Source: a virus (taxonomy: Duplodnaviria; Heunggongvirae; Uroviricota; Caudoviricetes). Taken from it: DNA of 9,863 bases. Under the pieces are notes generated by a model. That model saw only the letters and a list, made by a program, of their open reading frames with translations, made no database searches and was not told the DNA's origin. The translations under genes and the position numbers were made by a program. Positions within the stretch are counted from its first letter, which is position 1. Every line of letters begins with the position of its first letter. Below are positions 1 through 9,863 of the stretch, piece after piece. The stretch lies in IMG/VR virus record IMGVR_UViG_3300018488_000069, positions 1 to 9,863 of that record; one strand, 5' to 3'.

Positions 1-218
1 ACGCTGTGCGGATGCGCCGTATGGTCGCCGTATTCCCGCATTAACAGAGAGGGCAGCTCGAGAGGGAGCCTCCTCTGCGCCAGTGAGTGGGGATAAGCAA
101 AAACGATACACACGGGGGATTACCGCGATAACGGAGCGCGGAGGTGTCCCCTCATGGCCGCTGGTCCGGTGCGATGGTGGAAGAAACCGGAACCAAATGC
201 AACTGATAGCCATCATCA

Positions 219-458
219 TTTTGCGGGTCCTCCTGGTAGGGTAGGCCTGTCCACGAGGCGGGTCGGCGCGGAAAAAAGCGCATTTTTGTGATTTTATCGT
301 CATCATCATCATGTGTGTAAGCTGTTGTTTTTAATGTAATTGATGAAAAAAAGATGATGGTTGTGGCCAATTTTTGTTCGACATCTTTGTGTGGCGGCAT
401 TTCTTTACAAAAAAAACAGAATCACTTCTGTTCAGAGGGGTATGTGGAGGAGGCGTAG
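219..458 (+). other. cos: Putative cos packaging site: cosQ-like GGGTCCT (225-231), GC-rich cosN-like core (~253-271), AT-rich cosB-like segment (~280-420) immediately upstream of the small terminase gene
   Basis: Seen: TTTTGCGGGTCCTCC at 219-233 and ACGAGGCGGGTCGGCGCGG at 253-271, followed by ~140 bp of AT-rich DNA with A/T runs and repeated TTGTGGC-like motifs (361-367, 398-404), ending ~190 bp before the Nu1-like start. From memory this resembles the lambda cosQ ...ACGGGTCCT... and cosN ...ACG/GGGCGGCGACCTCGCGGG... arrangement, with similar spacing to Nu1. Exact nick positions cannot be determined from sequence. Confidence 0.4.
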
Positions 459-935
459 ATGGACGGCGAGCTGAAAAATATGAAGTTAAATATTAATCAA
501 CTGGCAGCCCTTTCAGGCCTGCACCGGCAGACCGTTACCGCAAGAATGGCGGATGTTCCTCTTGCTCCGGGCAGTAATGAGAAGAAGAAACTTTATCTAC
601 TGACGGACCTGATTACTGCGCTGCTGGCAAAAACACCATCCACCGAAGATGAGGAGATGAATCCACACGATCGCAAGGCATGGTATCAGTCCGAGCGCGA
701 GCGTCTTAAATTTCAGCATGAAACTGTTCAGCTTGTGCCCGTCAGTGATGTCAGACGGTCGTTTTCTGTCGTGGTGAAAGCGATAGTTCAGATACTGGAA
801 ACCTGGCCTGACCGGCTGGAAAGGGACAGGGGGTGGACTGCATCACAACTGAATGAAGTGCAGATCGTTGTTGATGAGATCCGCGACACGCTGGAAAAGG
901 CAGTGATTGCCTGCTGTGATGAGGCTGATATGTGA
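459..935 (+). CDS. nu1: Terminase small subunit (lambda Nu1-like, DNA-binding)
   Basis: 158-aa ORF directly upstream of, and overlapping, the large terminase gene. GGAGGAGG Shine-Dalgarno at 444-451, 7 nt before ATG 459. N-terminal segment (NINQLAALSGLHRQTV) resembles the helix-turn-helix of Nu1-type small terminases. Start could alternatively be ATG 480. Confidence 0.8.
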   Translation: MDGELKNMKLNINQLAALSGLHRQTVTARMADVPLAPGSNEKKKLYLLTDLITALLAKTPSTEDEEMNPHDRKAWYQSERERLKFQHETVQLVPVSDVRRSFSVVVKAIVQILETWPDRLERDRGWTASQLNEVQIVVDEIRDTLEKAVIACCDEADM

Positions 936-3055
936 ATCCGGTTAACGAGTGCCATACCCGCGCATCCGATATCTGGCGGGAAGTGGCCTCGCTGTTTCGC
1001 CCACCTGGCCGTTTACCTGTGGCAGATGCCATCCGGCGTTACATGCGGGTGCCACGGGGAGCCAATACCTCCGGTCCGTGGGAGTCATCACTGACGCCCT
1101 ACATGATTGACCCCATTAATACATTATCAGCCCGTGAATATGATGCAGTGGTGTTTGTCGGACCTGCGCGAACGGGCAAAACCGAGGGGCTGATTGACGG
1201 CTGGATTGTGTACGGCATCATCTGTGATCCGGCTGACATGCTGGTGGTGCAGATGACCGAGACGAAGGCGCGTGAGCATTCCAGGACGCGTCTTTCCAGA
1301 ACGTTTCGCCACAGTCCGGAGGTCAGTAAGCGCCTCAGCCCTTCCCGCAATGACAACAACGTCCACGATAAAATGTTTCTTGACGGCTCCTTCCTGAAGA
1401 TTGGCTGGCCGTCGATCACCGTATTTTCCTCTTCGGATTACCGTCGTGTGGCGCTGACGGATTATGACCGTTTCCCTGAAAACGTGGACGGGGAAGGAGA
1501 TGCCTTCACCCTGGCATCAAAGCGTACCACCACCTTTATGTCCTCCGGGATGACCCTGGTCGAGAGTTCACCGGGGCGGGATATCACTGACACCAAATGG
1601 CGCTGTGGCGGCGCACATGAGGCACCGCCAACAACGGGGATCCTGTCACTGTATAACCGGGGAGACCGCCGCCGGTGGTACTGGCCGTGTCCGCACTGCG
1701 GGGAATATTTTCAGCCGGTGATGGATAACATGACCGGATACCGGAATAACCCGGATTTTGTGGCTGCCGGTCAGGCTGCCCGTCTGATGTGTCCGCACTG
1801 TCGCGGACTGATTGCCCCTGAGCAGAAACGTGAACTGAATAACCAGGGGATCTGGCTTCGTGAAGGTGAACGGGCGGCGGCGGACGGCAGTATCACCGGA
1901 ACGCCACGAAACTCCAGGATTGCGTCGTTCTGGATGGAAGGTCCGGCTGCCGCGTTTCAGACCTGGGAACAACTGATTTTTAAGCTGCTGGCGGCAGAGG
2001 AAGAGTATGAGCGAACCGGCAGTGAAGAAACGCTGAAAGCGGTGGTGAACACCGATATCGGACGGCCCTATCTGCCCCGTTCAGCCACGGAACAGCGTAA
2101 AAGTGAGCTGCTTGAACAGCGTGCGGAGCCGGTTCCCCGTCGGTGTGTGCCGGATGGCGTGCGCTTCATTGAGGCAACGGTTGACGTACAGGGCGGTAAA
2201 AACCGCCGGTTTGTGGTGCAGATCACAGGATACGGAGAGCAGGGAGAACGCTGGATTGTTGATCGCTACAACCTCCGGCATTCACTTCGCTGTGGTCTCG
2301 GCGGTGAAAGTCTGCCTGTCGATCCGGCAGCGTATCCGGAAGACTGGGACTTATTGCTGACGGATGTGTTCCATAAAACCTGGCCGCTGGCGTCTGATCC
2401 GGATGTGCATATGCGTCTTATGGCCATGGCCGTGGATACGGGCGGTGAGGCCGGGGTGACGGATAACGCCTATCGTTTCTGGCGGCAGTGCCGCCGCGAA
2501 GGGCTGGGTAACCGGGTGTTTCTGTTCAAGGGCGATGGCCTGCGTCGCGACAGACTGATTAACCGTACTTTCCCGGATAACACCGGCAGAAGTGCCCGCC
2601 GTGCCAGGGCCAGCGGTGATGTTGCCCTGTGGCTGGTGCAGACCGATGCGTTTAAGGACCGGGTGAATAATGCCCTGTGGCGTGACACGCCGGGACCGAA
2701 TTATATCCACTTTCCCGACTGGCTGGGGCGCTGGTTTTTCGATGAGCTGACCTATGAGGAGCGCGGCAGTGACGGAAAATGGCGAAAACCGGGCAGGGGC
2801 GCTAACGAAGCGTTTGACCTGCTGGTCTACGCGGATGCGCTTGCCGTTCTGCATGGTTACGAAAAAATCCGCTGGCCGTCTGCACCTGACTGGGCACAAC
2901 GGGAAACGTGGCTTGTCGTTCCGGAGGAGCGTTCAGGGCTGACAACATCACGGGCGCTGCCGGAAAGGAAAGAAAAACGCCGTCACCGGAAGGAAAAACT
3001 GCGCACAGAGCGTGCAGAGGATAATCCGTGGATAACATCAGGAGGCTGGTTGTGA
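932..3055 (+). CDS. A: Terminase large subunit (lambda gpA family; ATPase/endonuclease)
   Basis: 707-aa ORF with a GTG start inside the Nu1 stop (ATGTGA overlap). Walker A P-loop GPARTGKT encoded at 1160-1183. Paired CPHC cysteine motifs (C-P-H-C at 1688-1699 and 1790-1801), as in gpA-type terminases. N-terminus (..SLFRP..) aligns by eye with the lambda gpA N-terminus. Confidence 0.9.
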   Translation: MNPVNECHTRASDIWREVASLFRPPGRLPVADAIRRYMRVPRGANTSGPWESSLTPYMIDPINTLSAREYDAVVFVGPARTGKTEGLIDGWIVYGIICDPADMLVVQMTETKAREHSRTRLSRTFRHSPEVSKRLSPSRNDNNVHDKMFLDGSFLKIGWPSITVFSSSDYRRVALTDYDRFPENVDGEGDAFTLASKRTTTFMSSGMTLVESSPGRDITDTKWRCGGAHEAPPTTGILSLYNRGDRRRWYWPCPHCGEYFQPVMDNMTGYRNNPDFVAAGQAARLMCPHCRGLIAPEQKRELNNQGIWLREGERAAADGSITGTPRNSRIASFWMEGPAAAFQTWEQLIFKLLAAEEEYERTGSEETLKAVVNTDIGRPYLPRSATEQRKSELLEQRAEPVPRRCVPDGVRFIEATVDVQGGKNRRFVVQITGYGEQGERWIVDRYNLRHSLRCGLGGESLPVDPAAYPEDWDLLLTDVFHKTWPLASDPDVHMRLMAMAVDTGGEAGVTDNAYRFWRQCRREGLGNRVFLFKGDGLRRDRLINRTFPDNTGRSARRARASGDVALWLVQTDAFKDRVNNALWRDTPGPNYIHFPDWLGRWFFDELTYEERGSDGKWRKPGRGANEAFDLLVYADALAVLHGYEKIRWPSAPDWAQRETWLVVPEERSGLTTSRALPERKEKRRHRKEKLRTERAEDNPWITSGGWL

Positions 3056-3264
3056 GTATTGAGGATGTCAGGAACATGATACAGCGGTACCGCGATGCGG
3101 AAATGGCGGTACTGGAAGGAAAATCCGTCACGTTTAACGGGCAGCAGCTGACGCTGGAAAGTCTGTCCCAGATCCGCGCCGGTCGGCAGGAGTGGGAGCG
3201 AAGACTTACGGCGATGGCGAACCGCAGACGGGGGAGTCCGGGGTTTAAACTGGCGAGGTTATGA
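3052..3264 (+). CDS. W: Head completion / head-tail connector protein (lambda gpW-like)
   Basis: Small ORF between terminase and portal with C-terminal ..RRRGSPGF.. resembling the lambda gpW C-terminus. The ORF track opens at ATG 3028 (78 aa), but AGGAGG at 3040-3045 sits 6 nt before GTG 3052, giving a 70-aa product overlapping the gpA stop (GTGA). Start uncertain among 3028, 3052 and 3076. Confidence 0.75.
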   Translation: MSIEDVRNMIQRYRDAEMAVLEGKSVTFNGQQLTLESLSQIRAGRQEWERRLTAMANRRRGSPGFKLARL

Positions 3265-4766
3265 TGGCGATTAGTGATGATGTGATTGGTTTTTTCTCGC
3301 CCGGCTGGAAAGCGGCGCGGTTACGCTCAAGGGCATTAATTATGGCCTATGAGGCCGTGAAACCCACCCGCACACACAAAGCCAGGCGGGAAAACCGTTC
3401 TGCCGATCAGCTCAGTAAATACGGTGCGGTTTCCCTGCGCGAGCAGGCCCGTTTTCTGGATATCAATCATGACCTGGTGATTGGTGTGTTTGACAAGCTG
3501 GAAGAGCGGGTGATTGGTGCCAGGGGAATTATTGTGGAGCCTCAGCCATTACGAAAAAACGGGGAAATGGCGGCAGAGCTGGCTGCGGATATCCGCCGGT
3601 TGTGGGCTGAATGGTCCGTGAGTCCGGATGTGACAGGGCAGTATACCCGTCCCGTGCTTGAACGTTTACTGCTGCGGACCTGGCTGCGGGATGGTGAAGT
3701 GTTTGCGCAGATGGTCAGTGGTGCGGGAAACGGTCTGGAACGGACGGCGGGAGTGCCATTCTGGCTTGAGGCGATGGAGCCGGATTTTGTGCCCATGCGC
3801 AGTGATGAGTCTGCCGGACTGAATCAGGGGGTTTTTCTTGATGAGTGGGGAAGACCGAAAAAATATCTGGTTTATAAAAATTATCCGGTCAGCGGCCGGC
3901 AGAGTGATACGAAAGAAATCGCTGCCGGAAAAATGATCCACCTGAAGTTCACTCGTCGTCTGCATCAGACGCGAGGCTCATCCATGTTATCAGGGGTGCT
4001 GATGCGGATCAGTGCCCTTAAGGAGTATGAGGATGCGGAACTGACTGCGGCGCGTATTGCTGCGGCACTGGGACTGTATATCCGTAAAGGTGACGGGCAG
4101 GACTATGAAGATCCGGGGATCAAAGAAACCGAGCGGGAAGTCCGTATCACCCCGGGTATTATTTATGACGATTTGCGCAAGGGCGAGGATATCGGCATGG
4201 TCAAATCTGACCGTCCCAATCCCAACCTTGAAACTTTCCGCAACGGCCAGTTGCGTGCAGTGGCAGCTGGCAGTCGTCTGAGTTTTTCCAGTGCGGCGCG
4301 TAACTATAACGGCACCTACAGCGCCCAGAGGCAGGAGCTGGTCGAGTCCACGGATGGTTACCTGATCCTGCAGGACTGTTTTATTGGCGCGGTAACCCGC
4401 CCGGTGTACCGGACATGGCTGAATATGGTGGTTGCGGCAGGTCTGCTGAAAATTCCGGCGGATGTGGAGATGAAAACGCTATATAACGCGACGTATTCCG
4501 GTCCGGTGATGCCGTGGATCGACCCGGTTAAGGAAGCTGAAGCCTGGAGAATTCAGATCCGGGGTGGTGCAGCGACAGAATCTGACTGGGTGCGTGCCGG
4601 CGGGCGCAATCCGGATGAGGTCAAACGTCGCCGCAAGGCTGAAATTGATGAAAACAGCAGACTGGGGCTGGTCTTTGATACTGACCCCGTCAACGACAAA
4701 GGAGGCAACAGTGCCGGAACTGAACAACAGCGTCAGCAGGCCACCGAAAGCCAGCATGAAGAATAA
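3261..4766 (+). CDS. B: Portal protein (gpB-equivalent)
   Basis: 501-aa ORF in the canonical portal position (after W, before protease/capsid). ATG overlaps the W stop (ATGA). Size fits portal proteins. Assignment is by synteny and size, not by a recognised motif. Confidence 0.8.
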   Translation: MMAISDDVIGFFSPGWKAARLRSRALIMAYEAVKPTRTHKARRENRSADQLSKYGAVSLREQARFLDINHDLVIGVFDKLEERVIGARGIIVEPQPLRKNGEMAAELAADIRRLWAEWSVSPDVTGQYTRPVLERLLLRTWLRDGEVFAQMVSGAGNGLERTAGVPFWLEAMEPDFVPMRSDESAGLNQGVFLDEWGRPKKYLVYKNYPVSGRQSDTKEIAAGKMIHLKFTRRLHQTRGSSMLSGVLMRISALKEYEDAELTAARIAAALGLYIRKGDGQDYEDPGIKETEREVRITPGIIYDDLRKGEDIGMVKSDRPNPNLETFRNGQLRAVAAGSRLSFSSAARNYNGTYSAQRQELVESTDGYLILQDCFIGAVTRPVYRTWLNMVVAAGLLKIPADVEMKTLYNATYSGPVMPWIDPVKEAEAWRIQIRGGAATESDWVRAGGRNPDEVKRRRKAEIDENSRLGLVFDTDPVNDKGGNSAGTEQQRQQATESQHEE

Positions 4767-6735
4767 ATCCTGGTTCAGGATGCAGGCGGGTGGTCAGGGT
4801 GAGGCGGATATTTATATTTATGACGAGATTGGTTTCTGGGGCGTCACCGCGAAGCAGTTTGTCAGCGATATGAATGCCCTGGGTGATATCACCCACATTA
4901 ATCTCCACATCAACTCACCGGGTGGCGATGTTTTTGAAGGCATCGCCATTTTTAATGCCCTGAAAAATCACGGTGCGGCCATTACCGTGTATGTGGATGG
5001 CGTTGCCGCCTCGATGGCATCCCTGATTGCGATGGCCGGTGACACGGTCATTATGCCGGAAAATGCCTTCATGATGATCCATAAACCCTGGGGGATCAGC
5101 GGTGGTGATGCGGAGAAAATGCGCACTTATGCCGAACGTCTGGACAAACTTGAGTCGGTTATGGTGCCGGTATATGCGCAGAAAACCGGAAAAACTACCG
5201 ATGAAATTGCCGCCATGCTGGCGGATGAGACCTGGATGTCCGGTGCCGAGTGTCTGGCACACGGATTTGCAGACCAGGTGACGCCAGCCGTTAAGGCAAT
5301 GGCATGTATTCAGTCAAAACGTACAGAGGAATTTAAAAAGATGCCGGAATCCATCCGAAATATGATCACGCAGCCACACAACTGTGCCCCGCATGATACC
5401 ACAGTGACAATCCCTGCACCGGCGGTAACAGAACCATCACCGGTACCGGCAGTGGCTGATGAAGCGAACATTCGTGCCCGGGGTATGGCAGAACAGAAAG
5501 CCCGCATGTCAGGCATTAACGATCTGTTTGCCATGTTCGGCGGTCGCTATCAGACGCTTCAGGCACAGTGCGTGGCTGATCCTGACTGTTCGCTGGAAAT
5601 GGCCCGTGAACGTCTGCTGAATGAAATGGGCAAGGAGTCCTCGCCGACCAACAAAAACACACCGGCCCATATTTATGCCGGAAACGGCAATTTTGTGGGG
5701 GACGGGATCCGCCAGGCGATGCTGGCCCGTGCCGGATTTGAAAATGTCGAGAAGGATAACGCCTATAACGGGATGACCCTGCGCGAATGGGCTCGCATGT
5801 CACTGACGGAGCGCGGTATTGGGGTGGCCAGTTATAACCCCATGCAGATGGTCGGGCTGGCGCTGACGCACAGCACTTCTGATTTTGGTAATATTCTGCT
5901 GGATGTGTCGAACAAGGGGCTGATCCAGGGCTGGGAGGAATCAGAAGAAACCTTCCAGAAGTGGACCCGTAAGGGCCGCCTGTCAGACTTCAAAACAGCA
6001 TATCGCGTGGGCATGGGCGGTTTTGGTTCGCTGCGTCAGGTTCGTGAGGGGGCGGAGTATAAATACATCACCACCTCAGATCGCAAGGAGACCATTGCAC
6101 TGGCCACCTACGGGGAGATTTTCTCCATCACCCGCCAGGCCATTATCAATGATGACCTGAATATGCTGGTGGACGTGCCGATGAAGATGGGGCGTGCGGC
6201 GAAGGCAACGATTGGTGACCTGGTCTACAAGGTGCTGACGGATAACCCGAAACTGTCAGACGGTAAGGCGCTGTTCCATGCCGATCACAAAAATATTGCC
6301 ACCGGCGGGATCTCCGTTTCCGGACTGGATGCGGCCCGTCAGATGATGCGCCTGCAGAAAGAAGGCGATCGTGCCCTGAATATCCGCCCGGCCTTCATGC
6401 TGGTCCCTGTGGCACTGGAGACGGTGGCGAACCAGACCATCAAATCGGCCAGTGTGAAAGGGGCGGATGCAAACGCCGGTGTCATTAACCCCATCCAGAA
6501 CTTTGCTGAGGTGATTGCAGAAGCGCGTCTTGATGCGGCAGATCCGAAAACCTGGTATCTGGCGGCGGCACAGGGCACCGACACCATTGAAGTGGCCTGG
6601 CTGGATGGGGTGGACACGCCATACATTGACCAGCAGGAAGGTTTCACCACTGACGGCATTGCCACAAAAATCCGTATTGATGCCGGTGTGGCACCGCTTG
6701 ACTGGCGCGGACTGGTGCGTTCGTCGGTGGCCTGA
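4711..6735 (+). CDS. Fused head maturation protease (ClpP-like, S14) - linker/scaffold - major capsid protein ('tripartite' capsid gene)
   Basis: Single long ORF. N-terminal ~190 aa carry ClpP-like catalytic motifs: Ser in GVAASMASL (codon 5011-5013), His in MMIHKPWG (codon 5080-5082), Asp in HGFADQV. A Pro/Ala-rich linker and helical segment (~5400-5640) is followed by ~360 aa of capsid-like sequence. Three in-frame start candidates: GTG 4711 (AAGGAGG at 4698-4704, 6-nt spacer), ATG 4756, ATG 4780; the ORF track's 4564 start is not supported. Overlaps the portal 3' end. Confidence 0.85.
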   Translation: MPELNNSVSRPPKASMKNKSWFRMQAGGQGEADIYIYDEIGFWGVTAKQFVSDMNALGDITHINLHINSPGGDVFEGIAIFNALKNHGAAITVYVDGVAASMASLIAMAGDTVIMPENAFMMIHKPWGISGGDAEKMRTYAERLDKLESVMVPVYAQKTGKTTDEIAAMLADETWMSGAECLAHGFADQVTPAVKAMACIQSKRTEEFKKMPESIRNMITQPHNCAPHDTTVTIPAPAVTEPSPVPAVADEANIRARGMAEQKARMSGINDLFAMFGGRYQTLQAQCVADPDCSLEMARERLLNEMGKESSPTNKNTPAHIYAGNGNFVGDGIRQAMLARAGFENVEKDNAYNGMTLREWARMSLTERGIGVASYNPMQMVGLALTHSTSDFGNILLDVSNKGLIQGWEESEETFQKWTRKGRLSDFKTAYRVGMGGFGSLRQVREGAEYKYITTSDRKETIALATYGEIFSITRQAIINDDLNMLVDVPMKMGRAAKATIGDLVYKVLTDNPKLSDGKALFHADHKNIATGGISVSGLDAARQMMRLQKEGDRALNIRPAFMLVPVALETVANQTIKSASVKGADANAGVINPIQNFAEVIAEARLDAADPKTWYLAAAQGTDTIEVAWLDGVDTPYIDQQEGFTTDGIATKIRIDAGVAPLDWRGLVRSSVA

Positions 6736-6757
6736 TAACCGCGTTATCACAATCACT

Positions 6758-6776
6758 GCCCGAAAGGGCTTTTTTT
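6758..6776 (+). terminator. Weak rho-independent-terminator-like hairpin after the capsid gene
   Basis: GCCC-GAAA-GGGC (6758-6769) followed by TTTTTTT (6770-6776), 23 nt after the capsid stop. The stem is only 4 bp, so this may be a partial attenuator or mRNA 3'-stabiliser rather than a full terminator. Confidence 0.3.
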
Positions 6777-6822
6777 ATGCCTGAAAAACAGCCCCACAGG
6801 GGCTGTCCGGAGAAACAGCATT

Positions 6823-7149
6823 ATGGCGAAAAATTTTGTACAGGACGGCACCACCATTGAGCTGGTGAATGCCGGGGATCAGACCATTCTGAGCGGTGCC
6901 GCTGTGGTGGTTGGCAGCATGGTGGCAGTGGCCATTACCGATATTCCTGCCGGGGAGACCGGTGACGGGTTCGCCGAAGGCGTGTTCCTGCTGCCAAAAC
7001 AGTCTGCCGACGATATTCAGGCCGGTGTGGCGGTTTATCTGAAGGACGGGACTGTGCAGCCTGCCGCAGACGGTGCAGTGGCTGCGGGGGTAGCCTGGGA
7101 AAATGCCCCTGCAAACAGCGCCACTGTGGCAGTAAAAATCAATGTCTGA
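6823..7149 (+). CDS. Small Ala/Gly/Val-rich capsid-associated protein (putative head decoration/cement protein, DUF2190-like)
   Basis: 108-aa ORF immediately downstream of the capsid gene, with GGAGA (6809-6813) 9 nt before the ATG. Composition and size are typical of small beta-rich decoration proteins encoded next to HK97-fold capsid genes. Function is inferred from position and composition only. Confidence 0.55.
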   Translation: MAKNFVQDGTTIELVNAGDQTILSGAAVVVGSMVAVAITDIPAGETGDGFAEGVFLLPKQSADDIQAGVAVYLKDGTVQPAADGAVAAGVAWENAPANSATVAVKINV

Positions 7150-7423
7150 TCTGTTTACGCGAATGTGTTGCCGGATGGACATGGCGACCGTACGCATGAT
7201 GGGGAAAACGGCGGAGATTAACGGCATCAGTTATGACGTGATACCGGAGTATGAGTCTGCGGATATGGGGGCGCTTTCCGGCAGTCAGTTGTCACTGGTG
7301 GTGTTTTCAGCGCAGTACCGGCCGGCCCGCGATGATGTGGTTGTGTTTGAAGGCCGCACACTGACGGTGACCCGTTATGACACGTACAACGGTAAACCCC
7401 GGATTTTTGTCGAACAGGAATAA
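7142..7423 (+). CDS. Head-tail joining protein (lambda FII-like position)
   Basis: 93-aa ORF whose ATG overlaps the upstream stop (ATGTCTGA), located between the head genes and Z exactly where lambda FII sits. Only weak visible similarity to lambda FII; assignment is mainly by synteny. Confidence 0.55.
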   Translation: MSDLFTRMCCRMDMATVRMMGKTAEINGISYDVIPEYESADMGALSGSQLSLVVFSAQYRPARDDVVVFEGRTLTVTRYDTYNGKPRIFVEQE

Positions 7424-7425
7424 GT

Positions 7426-8049
7426 ATGGCGATAAAAGGTCTGGCGCAGGCCATGAAAAATCTGGATGCGATTAACCGCCGTGCCGTTCCCCGGGCTGCC
7501 GCCACGACACTTAACCGTGTGGCGGAGTCCATCATCGCGAAAACGGCCTCTTTGGTTGCCAGGGAGCTGGCGGTTCCGCGCCGTCTCATCCGTGAGCGTA
7601 TCCGCCTGCAACGGGCCAGCGCAGACAGGGTTTATGCGAAGGTCATCATCAACACCGGTAATCTGCCCGCCATAAAACTGGGGACGGCCAGCGTGCGGCT
7701 TTCCCGCAGAAAGCGGCGAAAGAAAGGTGAGCGTTCGGTCACGAAAGGCGGTGGCAGTGTGCTGATTGTCGGGAAACGGCGGATCCCGAATGCCTTTATC
7801 ACCCGGCTGGCTAACGGACGCTGGCATGTGATGCAGCGTATGCCGTGGGCATCATCGTCCACCGGCGCTGACAGCAAAGGGAGGCCGAAACGCCACCGTC
7901 TGCCGATCGAAGTGGTGAAGATTCCGACTGCCGGACCGCTGGCAGAAACCTTTGAACGTGAACGGGACCGGATGTACCGGGAAAAATTACCAGTGCAGAT
8001 GATGAAAGCCATGACGCATCAGTTACGCCTGGTGCTGAAAAGAAAATGA
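7426..8049 (+). CDS. Z: Tail completion protein (lambda gpZ-like)
   Basis: 207-aa ORF starting MAIKGL.., with basic stretch ..LSRRKRRKKG..GGGSVL.V..RRIP.AFI....NGRWHVMQR.., matching my recollection of lambda gpZ (192 aa) in sequence and position. Confidence 0.85.
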   Translation: MAIKGLAQAMKNLDAINRRAVPRAAATTLNRVAESIIAKTASLVARELAVPRRLIRERIRLQRASADRVYAKVIINTGNLPAIKLGTASVRLSRRKRRKKGERSVTKGGGSVLIVGKRRIPNAFITRLANGRWHVMQRMPWASSSTGADSKGRPKRHRLPIEVVKIPTAGPLAETFERERDRMYREKLPVQMMKAMTHQLRLVLKRK

Positions 8050-8061
8050 CAGGGAGGGTGT

Positions 8062-8460
8062 ATGAAACACCGGGAAATACGGGCGGCAGTTCTGTCAGCC
8101 CTGAAAGACAATATTTCTGAGCGGGTGAGCTGGTTTGACGGCCGCCCGGTTTTTATTGATGAACAGGAACTGCCTGCTGTTGCTGTTTACCTGACTGATG
8201 CGTCTGCTGCTGACGAGTTCGTTGATGAGGGGACCTGGGAGGCGACACTGCATATTGAAGTTTTTCTCAGGGCAAAAGAACCGGACTCGGCACTGGATAT
8301 GTGGATGGAAGAGAAAATCCTTCCTGCGCTGGAGGCGGTTCCCGGCCTCAGTGCGTTACTGCTGAAGATGAATCTTCAGGGGTATGACTACCGCCGGGAT
8401 GATGAGTTTATGATGTGGGGATCGGCAGATCTCCTGTGGAAAATTACCTACGAGATGTGA
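8062..8460 (+). CDS. U: Tail terminator protein (lambda gpU-like)
   Basis: 132-aa ORF (lambda gpU is 131 aa) with MKH.E.RAAVL.AL, ..PAVAVYLT.., ..LHIEVFL.. and C-terminal ..GYDYRRDD......SADL...ITYEM matching lambda gpU as I recall it. GGGAGGG precedes the start. Confidence 0.85.
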
Positions 8461-8467
8461 GGACGAT

Positions 8468-9217
8468 ATGGCAATACCAAATCCTCTTGAGCCGGTGAAA
8501 GGTTCCGGCACCACACTATGGGTGTACACCGGCACTGGTGATGCTTATGCAAACCCGCTGTCAGACGATGAGTGGACGCGCCTGGCAAAAATAAAGGATC
8601 TGACACCCGGCGAGATGACGGCAGAATCCTACGATGATAACTATCTGGATGATGATGATGCGGACTGGGTATCCACCGGGCAGGGGCAGAAATCAGCAGG
8701 GGATACCAGTTTTACGCTGGCCTGGAAGCCCGGCGAGAAAGGGCAGCGCGATTTGATCGCCTGGTTTGACAGCAGTGAGACCCGGGCCTACAAAATCCGT
8801 TTCCCGAACGGCACGGTGGATGTGTTCCGTGGCTGGGTGAGCGCCATTGGTAAAGCGGTGACCGCCAGAGAGGTGATCACCCGTACCGTGAAGATCACCA
8901 ATATCGGCCGTCCGTCGCTGGCGGAAGATCAGGGGGACATCACGCCGGTCACCGGTATTACCGTGACGCCATCAACGGGCAATGTGGCAAAAGGTCAGAA
9001 TATCACCCTGACCGTGGCCGTTCAGCCGGAAGGGGCGACGGATAAAACCTTCCGCGCCACCTCGGCGAATCAGAATTTTGCGACCATTACCGTGAAAGGG
9101 AACACGATCACGGTGAAAGGTGTTGCGGCAGGTAAAGCGCAGATCCCTGTTGTCACCGGCAACGGTGAGTTTGCGGCGGTGGCGGAGATCACCGTCACGG
9201 ATGGTGCTACAGGCTGA
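8468..9217 (+). CDS. V: Major tail tube protein (lambda gpV-like) with C-terminal Ig-like (Big_2-type) domain
   Basis: 249-aa ORF (lambda gpV is 246 aa). N-terminal ..[66 protein letters not shown].. is near-identical to lambda gpV as I recall it. The C-terminal ~90 aa (nt ~8945-9214) is a Thr/Val-rich Ig-like domain. Confidence 0.9.
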
Positions 9218-9232
9218 GAGGGGAGATAAAGC

Positions 9233-9863
<631 letters not shown>

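Follow-up and report, generated by a model that had tools for sequence, protein, structure and literature searches.

The window analysed here is a 9,863-nucleotide stretch of DNA from a tailed virus (Caudoviricetes; IMG/VR record IMGVR_UViG_3300018488_000069, positions 1 to 9,863), taken at its full length. A long open reading frame (ORF) on its plus strand, ending at position 6735, was identified with high confidence as a gene for head assembly in a lambdoid Escherichia coli prophage resembling Gifsy-2; in this gene, a protease, a linker, a scaffold-like domain, and an HK97-fold capsid protein follow one another on a single chain. Judged by its sequence, the ORF is a member of a known and curated family, NCBIfam NF045540 (scaf_prot_MCP1, 'ClpP-like prohead protease/major capsid protein fusion protein'), that is, the Gifsy-2 type tripartite capsid gene, and the architecture is already known. 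The match to NF045540 scored 993.4 bits (cut-off, 475) and spanned profile positions 2-651 of 652, and PHROG 133 matched the protein end to end with 1138 bits. The RefSeq product name of the 99.8%-identical copies in E. coli is also 'ClpP-like prohead protease/major capsid protein fusion protein'. A first-pass annotation of this DNA had described positions 4711-6735 as a single-ORF fusion of a known and not a new kind. Both statements held, because the ORF was intact with Pfam protease and capsid domains on one chain, and a fusion of just this kind is what both NF045540 and the RefSeq product name denote. Residue numbers given below count from the ATG at position 4756 (the RefSeq start) as amino acid (aa) 1, and the coordinates of the features are collected in Table 1.

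By comparison of sequences and models, the N-terminal part is of the ClpP-type fold and carries an invariant Ser/His/Asp set. Pfam CLP_protease matched aa 30-176 (E = 1.6e-36), NF045542 ('head maturation protease, ClpP-related') scored 221 bits against a cut-off of 120, and solved ClpP chains matched aa 43-181 (E = 4e-17) with the AASM, MIH-PWG, and G-DQV motifs aligned. The N-terminal domain predicted with AlphaFold2 (AF2), at a predicted local distance difference test score (pLDDT) of about 70-89, superposed on ClpP structures with target-normalised template modelling (TM) scores of 0.73-0.82 and root-mean-square deviations of 2.2-3.5 Å. Ser86, His109, and Asp173 were invariant in 47 aligned sequences. 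The ClpP-type catalytic set of the first-pass annotation was thereby confirmed: the Ser and His codons are exactly those that it had named, the Asp that it had left at the level of the HGFADQV motif is encoded at 5272-5274, and the protease fold expected in the N-terminal domain was recovered by both the CLP_protease match and the structural match to ClpP. An S49/SppA identity for the protease was not obtained with NCBIfam, in which SppA models reached 27.5 against a cut-off of 155 and the best matches were ClpP-type families.

The C-terminal domain was identified as a major capsid protein with the HK97 fold, belonging to the Mu gpT / Phage_capsid_4 type. Pfam Phage_capsid_4 matched aa 365-656 (E = 1.3e-56), with a weaker match to Mu-like_gpT (E = 6e-10). 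A profile of the capsid domain matched solved structures 8rkc and 8rkx at 8e-14 and 9jod at 1.6e-13; 8rkx was identified by Foldseek as the procapsid of phage JBD30. Two AF2 models were built. The first covered the full length with 47 close homologues and had a pLDDT of 50.5, and its capsid domain was uninterpretable. The second covered aa 236-659 with 99 diverse homologues, including a distant set from cyanophage and Paracoccaceae, and had a pLDDT of 83.5. Foldseek returned 306 PDB matches to the second model at E ≤ 1e-3, and all 50 of these 306 that were listed are HK97-fold shells (HK97, JBD30, Bxb1, T5, P4, and encapsulins). The capsid-sized C-terminal domain noted in the first pass is thus a capsid domain of the HK97 fold. 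The homologues in CP-1639, cdtI, and Stx2 phages bear the legacy name 'putative protease/scaffold protein', which would suit a gene that encodes protease and scaffold only, the true capsid protein being encoded elsewhere, as lambda C/Nu3 is separate from E. This is highly improbable, given that the C-terminal 350 aa are of the Phage_capsid_4 / Mu gpT type, are modelled confidently as an HK97 fold, and are homologous to solved capsid proteins. In addition, no ORF from the terminase to the tail genes other than the fusion had capsid-protein features in the ORF list, Pfam, or PHROG.

Table 1. Coordinates of the fusion gene, its parts, and the adjoining genes in the window
Feature	Position	Strand	Basis or remarks
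Portal gene (lambda gpB family)	3261..4766	+	Phage_portal_2 E = 1.6e-80; RefSeq 'phage portal protein'
Shine-Dalgarno sequence AAGGAGG	4699..4705	+	5-nt spacer to GTG 4711
ClpP-like prohead protease / scaffold / major capsid protein fusion coding sequence	4711..6735	+	674 aa, 73.2 kDa; stop TGA 6733-6735
ClpP-like (MEROPS S14-type) prohead protease domain, aa 17-176	4804..5283	+	Pfam, NCBIfam, ClpP structures
Catalytic Ser86	5011-5013	+	within GVAASMASL
Catalytic His109	5080-5082	+	within MIHKPWG
Catalytic Asp173	5272-5274	+	within HGFADQV
Conserved post-protease segment, aa 181-204	5296..5367	+	F193 and P197 kept family-wide; holds ATG 5341-5343
Candidate internal ribosome-binding site GAGGA	5326-5330 (AGGA 5327-5330)	+	10-nt spacer to ATG 5341-5343
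Pro/Ala/Thr/Val-rich hypervariable linker, aa 205-235	5368..5460	+	entropy, indels, composition
Three-helix scaffold-like domain, aa 236-295	5461..5640	+	AF2; scaffold function putative
Flexible junction, aa 296-311	5641..5688	+	model residues 61-76, pLDDT < 50
HK97-fold major capsid protein domain (Mu gpT / Phage_capsid_4 type), aa 312-659, ~38 kDa	5689..6732	+	
Head decoration (cement) gene, DUF2190 / Phage_cement_2	6823..7149	+	108 aa; PF09956 E = 5e-20; PHROG 122 'head decoration'

The fusion was found to be widespread. Of 5426 complete E. coli genomes, 2063 (38%) had a megablast match, which covered at least 80% of the gene in 579, and tblastn found 80 phage records with a match over at least 80% of the protein. 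The phages among the tblastn matches included Shiga toxin (Stx)-converting phages, CP-1639, mEp460, cdtI, and LLS. In species-representative genomes, the fusion was seen from Klebsiella to Providencia and Morganella, with 37 near-full-length loci in other Enterobacterales; it was abundant in Pseudomonas aeruginosa and was also present in cyanophage and Paracoccaceae. More than 100 distinct 50%-identity clusters had the full-length architecture, and most of the best 150 cluster representatives at this identity were 640-750 aa long with one unbroken match across the whole query. A search of viral contigs for one 49%-identity representative (P0382) found nothing. The E-values, together with the full-length conservation in hundreds of genomes, exclude chance as the source of the observation. 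Because the fusion is so widespread across hosts, the view taken in the first pass that the architecture is uncommon had to be abandoned.

The same distribution bears on the origin of the long ORF. Older records name the homologue only 'protease/scaffold protein' or 'Clp protease', as would be expected if a sequencing or assembly frameshift had artificially joined a protease/scaffold gene to a capsid gene. However, an unbroken ORF of about 640-750 aa was present in complete E. coli genomes, the 37 Enterobacterales loci, Pseudomonas, cyanophage, Paracoccaceae, and most of the best 150 clusters, and the alignment to a Salmonella homologue (P0085) was gap-free. Since all of these groups keep the fusion in a single ORF, the probability of such an artefact, which the first-pass annotation had named as a possible objection, is close to nil. 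The practical value of assigning the fusion correctly lies mainly in annotation: the family is very common in E. coli prophages, including Stx-converting phages, and the older names conceal the capsid protein.

The closest characterised counterpart is the capsid gene of Salmonella prophage Gifsy-2 (coding sequence 22471-24561 of NC_010393, STM1034.3n.Gifsy2; 696 aa), which was collinear with the window's gene and 61% identical over 669 aligned positions. The two share the three-part order on one ORF and have identical Pfam domains, so that the kinship with Gifsy-2 put forward in the first pass was upheld over the full length. The neighbouring genes are also alike, with a portal gene upstream and a DUF2190 decoration gene (52% identity) downstream, followed by Z, U, V, and G. 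On the other hand, the present gene differs from that of Gifsy-2 in its E. coli host, in a linker of unrelated sequence and slightly different length, and in small indels of the capsid domain. A model of the Gifsy-2 capsid is reported to have used the HK97 capsid protein together with gpD of lambda. Passages in three reports state that the Gifsy-2 capsid has T=7 symmetry (PMC8814770), that a trimeric cementing/decoration protein sits at its three-fold axes (PMC8538268), and that its protease and coat genes are fused (PMC12315714).

A like architecture has been described in 34% of the siphovirus prophages of Paracoccus (PMC6536676) and in gp5 of Pseudomonas phage MD8 (PMC8508860). In MD8 gp5 and the genes of MD8-like/CF67a prophages, a protease, a scaffold-like region, and an HK97/Mu-type capsid protein are held in one gene of about 693 aa. 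The copy in Pseudomonas phage vB_Pae_CF67a was about 58% identical to that of the window and its relatives were 55-59% identical, whereas the MD8-like copies differ in a longer N-terminal extension, a longer linker, and insertions in the capsid domain. NF045541 (scaf_prot_MCP2), which includes the 'major head and protease protein' of Shewanella phage 1/44 and a protein of Vibrio phage 1.083.O, aligned with aa 200-656 at 418 bits, so that the E. coli fusion scores under the cut-off of 525. Its members in Shewanella and Vibrio phages are likewise single genes of about 670-690 aa followed by a DUF2190 decoration gene. The N-terminal ~370 aa of the members from Shewanella phage 1/44 and Vibrio phage 1.083.O gave no Pfam ClpP or protease match; in NF045541, capsid proteins of this type seem to be joined to a protease module of another, unrecognised kind.

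Comparison with lambda and HK97 places the fusion among the better known head modules. As in lambda C/Nu3/D/E, the gene lies after the portal gene, the functions occur in the same order, protease and scaffold share one frame, and a decoration protein, probably a trimer as in lambda, is present. In contrast, the lambda protease gpC is annotated as an S49 peptidase, whereas the protease here is ClpP-like and S14-type; lambda E is a separate gene with D between Nu3 and E, whereas the capsid protein here is fused; and the decoration protein here belongs to DUF2190, while that of lambda belongs to the gpD family. HK97 gp5 resembles the fusion, as the latter is read here, in carrying a scaffold function (the delta domain) at the N-terminus of an HK97-fold capsid protein, from which it is removed by the phage protease, and its fold was matched directly. 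The HK97 protease gp4, however, is encoded by a separate gene, whereas the protease here is fused to the capsid protein. The HK97 protease is of a different fold family (herpesvirus-like), and the HK97 shell is held by chainmail crosslinks and has no decoration protein.

Between the protease and the capsid domain, the chain is divided into a conserved segment directly after the protease, a linker, a helical domain, and a junction. The linker, TQPHNCAPHDTTVTIPAPAVTEPSPVPAVAD, had the top column entropy and the most indels of the 47-sequence alignment (55-96% identity) and a pLDDT below 50. The Pro/Ala-rich linker noticed in the first pass is therefore real and is the most variable stretch of the family. 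The following domain (aa 236-295) was moderately conserved in the same alignment and was modelled as helices at model residues 2-24, 31-39, and 45-58 with a pLDDT of 81-94. It stands where Nu3 does in lambda or the delta domain does in HK97, and its position and helical structure suggest a scaffold role. The junction (aa 296-311) was essentially the sole low-confidence stretch of the aa 236-659 model, and the family has indels after aa 292 and aa 299. Because it is disordered in the model and lies at family indels, the junction is the likeliest zone of the maturation cleavage that would free the capsid protein; cleavage within it would give a capsid protein with a computed mass of 38-40 kDa.

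From these features and from homology, the following course of assembly is proposed. Copies of the polyprotein would assemble about the portal to give a T=7 procapsid, in which the shell would consist of the capsid domains, with protease and scaffold facing the interior. Crowding within the closed shell would then activate the tethered proteases, which would cut within the flexible junction at about aa 296-311. The N-terminal ~300 residues would be digested by this self-processing and would exit the shell, leaving the capsid protein of about 38-40 kDa. This protein would expand upon DNA packaging, and the expanded shell would be held firm by the product of the downstream DUF2190 decoration gene, acting as trimers.

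Several points weigh against this interpretation of the ORF. The processing position of the E. coli copy was predicted from its sequence and model. A comparison of the middle domain with lambda Nu3 gave no similarity, and the domain had no detectable homology to any characterised scaffold; of the first-pass assignment of a scaffold to the middle of the chain, the helical domain in the right place has stood, while the scaffold function itself is inferred. The first, full-length AF2 model was poor in the capsid part, so it gives no inter-domain geometry. A protease on every subunit amounts to 415 domains per procapsid, which by our estimate would fill about one-third of the interior at an assumed radius of 23 nm; such a load is feasible but unusual and heavy. 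Finally, an insertion sequence (IS) lies in the tail-assembly gene T of this prophage (see below), so that the fusion gene may not serve viable particles in this strain.

The plus-strand frame containing the fusion is open over 723 codons from 4564 to 6735 in the ORF list. RefSeq starts the 99.8%-identical E. coli copies at the ATG equivalent to 4756, which gives 659 aa. In a Shine-Dalgarno (SD) scan, however, AAGGAGG with GTG 4711 was the top SD/start pair anywhere in the ORF. In 22 of 27 loci of other genera, AAGGAG(G) was likewise followed by an in-frame GTG or ATG at this upstream position, whereas the position aligned with Met 4756 was Ala, Val, or Pro in most of the 27. Because the SD and the start are conserved across genera and Met 4756 is mostly replaced, GTG 4711 is the better-supported gene model; the resulting 674 aa is the length of many database entries for the fusion protein. 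The first-pass start at 4711 is thus retained, and the RefSeq start is probably 15 codons too late, which would be an annotation error in the E. coli lineage. The Gifsy-2 record annotates a longer N-terminus, which has no obvious SD.

The load of 415 proteases is one reason for suspecting a second, shorter product. The conserved post-protease segment contains the ATG at 5341 (Met196), from which a protease-less scaffold-capsid chain of 464 aa (50.5 kDa) could be made beside the full-length chain from GTG 4711. Such a nested pair would refine the explanation given above, in that the number of proteases in each procapsid would be governed by the relative use of the two starts. We consider it a tentative proposal that is rather less likely to be right than wrong. 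Met196 was invariant in 47 proteins and in 104 aligned genes of the Enterobacterales/Pseudomonas type, and the Pseudomonas MD8-like copies also carry an AGGA-N10-ATG motif; in the wider family, position 196 is A, V, P, I, or T, and 124 of 138 representatives have P197. Codon usage was compared across 42 genes made non-redundant at 92% nucleotide identity (median, 62%). Codon 191 was GAG in 25, AAG in 14, and CAG in 3 of them, so that the amino acid varies and AGGA stays constant. Codon 191 was alone among 36 E/Q/K columns in being 100% G-ending (the next column reached 88%). Of 300 conserved degenerate columns in a smaller set of 26 genes, just 3 used a single codon, and K188 and E191 were two of these three. 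Furthermore, the 45-nucleotide window from −25 to +20 at ATG 5341 was among the least folded of each gene by predicted mRNA structure (median, 7th percentile). An internal ribosome-binding site would be expected to leave such a pattern of AGGA and ATG 5341, which hints at a protease-less product.

Nested protease/scaffold genes have precedents in lambda, in which Nu3 is annotated within C, and in HFTV1 gp17/gp17.5 and herpes simplex virus 1 (HSV-1; UL26.5) (bioRxiv 10.64898/2026.09.13.751334). The AGGA is short and its 10-nucleotide spacing is over the optimum, although the SD of the lambda Nu3 start is itself distant, with only GGGAG about 15 nucleotides upstream. A 9-codon window of synonymous conservation was only about two standard deviations under the mean, the weak folding may just reflect A/T-rich Lys/Glu/Phe codons, and the compared sequences are phylogenetically related. 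F193 and P197 are conserved as protein across the family, and part of the local conservation is therefore a peptide motif. The nested product is a prediction made from sequence alone. The SDs of all other internal starts in the scan of the ORF were at best 4-mers. An alternative cause of the conserved AGGA, programmed frameshifting at TTT AAA AAG (5332-5340), was rejected, since relatives do not keep the A-rich codons 194-195. If the nested product is real, the internal start would explain how protease dose is controlled in a phage that fuses protease to every copy of the capsid gene. It would also extend the logic of lambda C/Nu3 and herpesvirus UL26/UL26.5 to a gene that holds the capsid protein as well, and would add a bacterial example of protease, scaffold, and shell protein being made together from one nested frame.

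The genes of the window are arranged in the order terminase, gpW-like adaptor, portal, fusion gene, decoration, and then the tail genes Z, U, V, and G. The 3' end of the portal gene (stop at 4766) overlaps the start of the fusion gene. The decoration protein had no homologue by sequence among solved structures. In the 87-nucleotide spacer between the capsid and decoration genes, a hairpin, GCCCGAAAGGGC, is followed by seven T (6758-6777), and a second small hairpin, CAGCCCCACAGGGGCTG, is located at 6790-6806. These hairpins may form an incomplete terminator or contribute to mRNA stability; a promoter and terminator scan of positions 4500-7300 gave no excess over shuffles, the stem at 6758-6777 being too short for the terminator scan.

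Homology to intact prophages ends at 9723, where an IS3-family element (from about 9724 to the window's end at 9863) interrupts gene T just past G. The element was 99-100% identical to copies named 'IS3-like element ISEc31 family transposase', and the junction at 9723/9724 was found in no complete E. coli genome of the collection. This ISEc31-like insertion raises the question of whether the fusion gene, though intact, belongs to a defective, possibly tail-defective prophage, a relic that no longer builds infectious particles in this strain. In VT1-Sakai (AP000400.1), the Stx1 prophage carried by E. coli O157 Sakai, an IS629 insertion splits a related copy of the fusion gene that is 95% identical. 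Against this, the head and tail genes of the window, including the capsid gene, are all full length, and the visible stretch is only 9.9 kb. A defective prophage is a serious possibility, to which we assign slightly less than an even chance. The sole Rfam match in the window, isrC (9792-9863), lies within the IS.

Several minor features were observed in the remaining genes. The ORF at 7142-7423 (93 aa) occupies the position of lambda FII and has been given diverse names: Pfam 'Gifsy-2' (PF13856) is described as an ATP-binding sugar transporter, RefSeq names the product 'DNA breaking-rejoining protein', and PHROG 153 is 'minor tail protein'. A weak match to Phage_attach, the lambda FII family, was also obtained (E = 0.0064). 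The product is probably a head-tail joining protein under misleading names. The gpV-type tail tube protein (8468-9217) has a C-terminal Big_2 Ig-like domain at aa 160-239, as does lambda V. The gpG homologue (9233-9664) contains, close to its end, a slippery heptamer of the lambda type, G GGA AAG (9640-9646), at the place expected for the G-T −1 frameshift. In the non-coding region 1-458, upstream of the small terminase gene (459-935), GGGTCGGCGCGG at about 269-280 is followed by an A/T-rich tract. This sequence resembles the cos ends quoted for both lambda (GGGCGGCGACCT) and mEp213/LLS (GGGCGGCGCGCT) (PMC12315714) and may be cosN.

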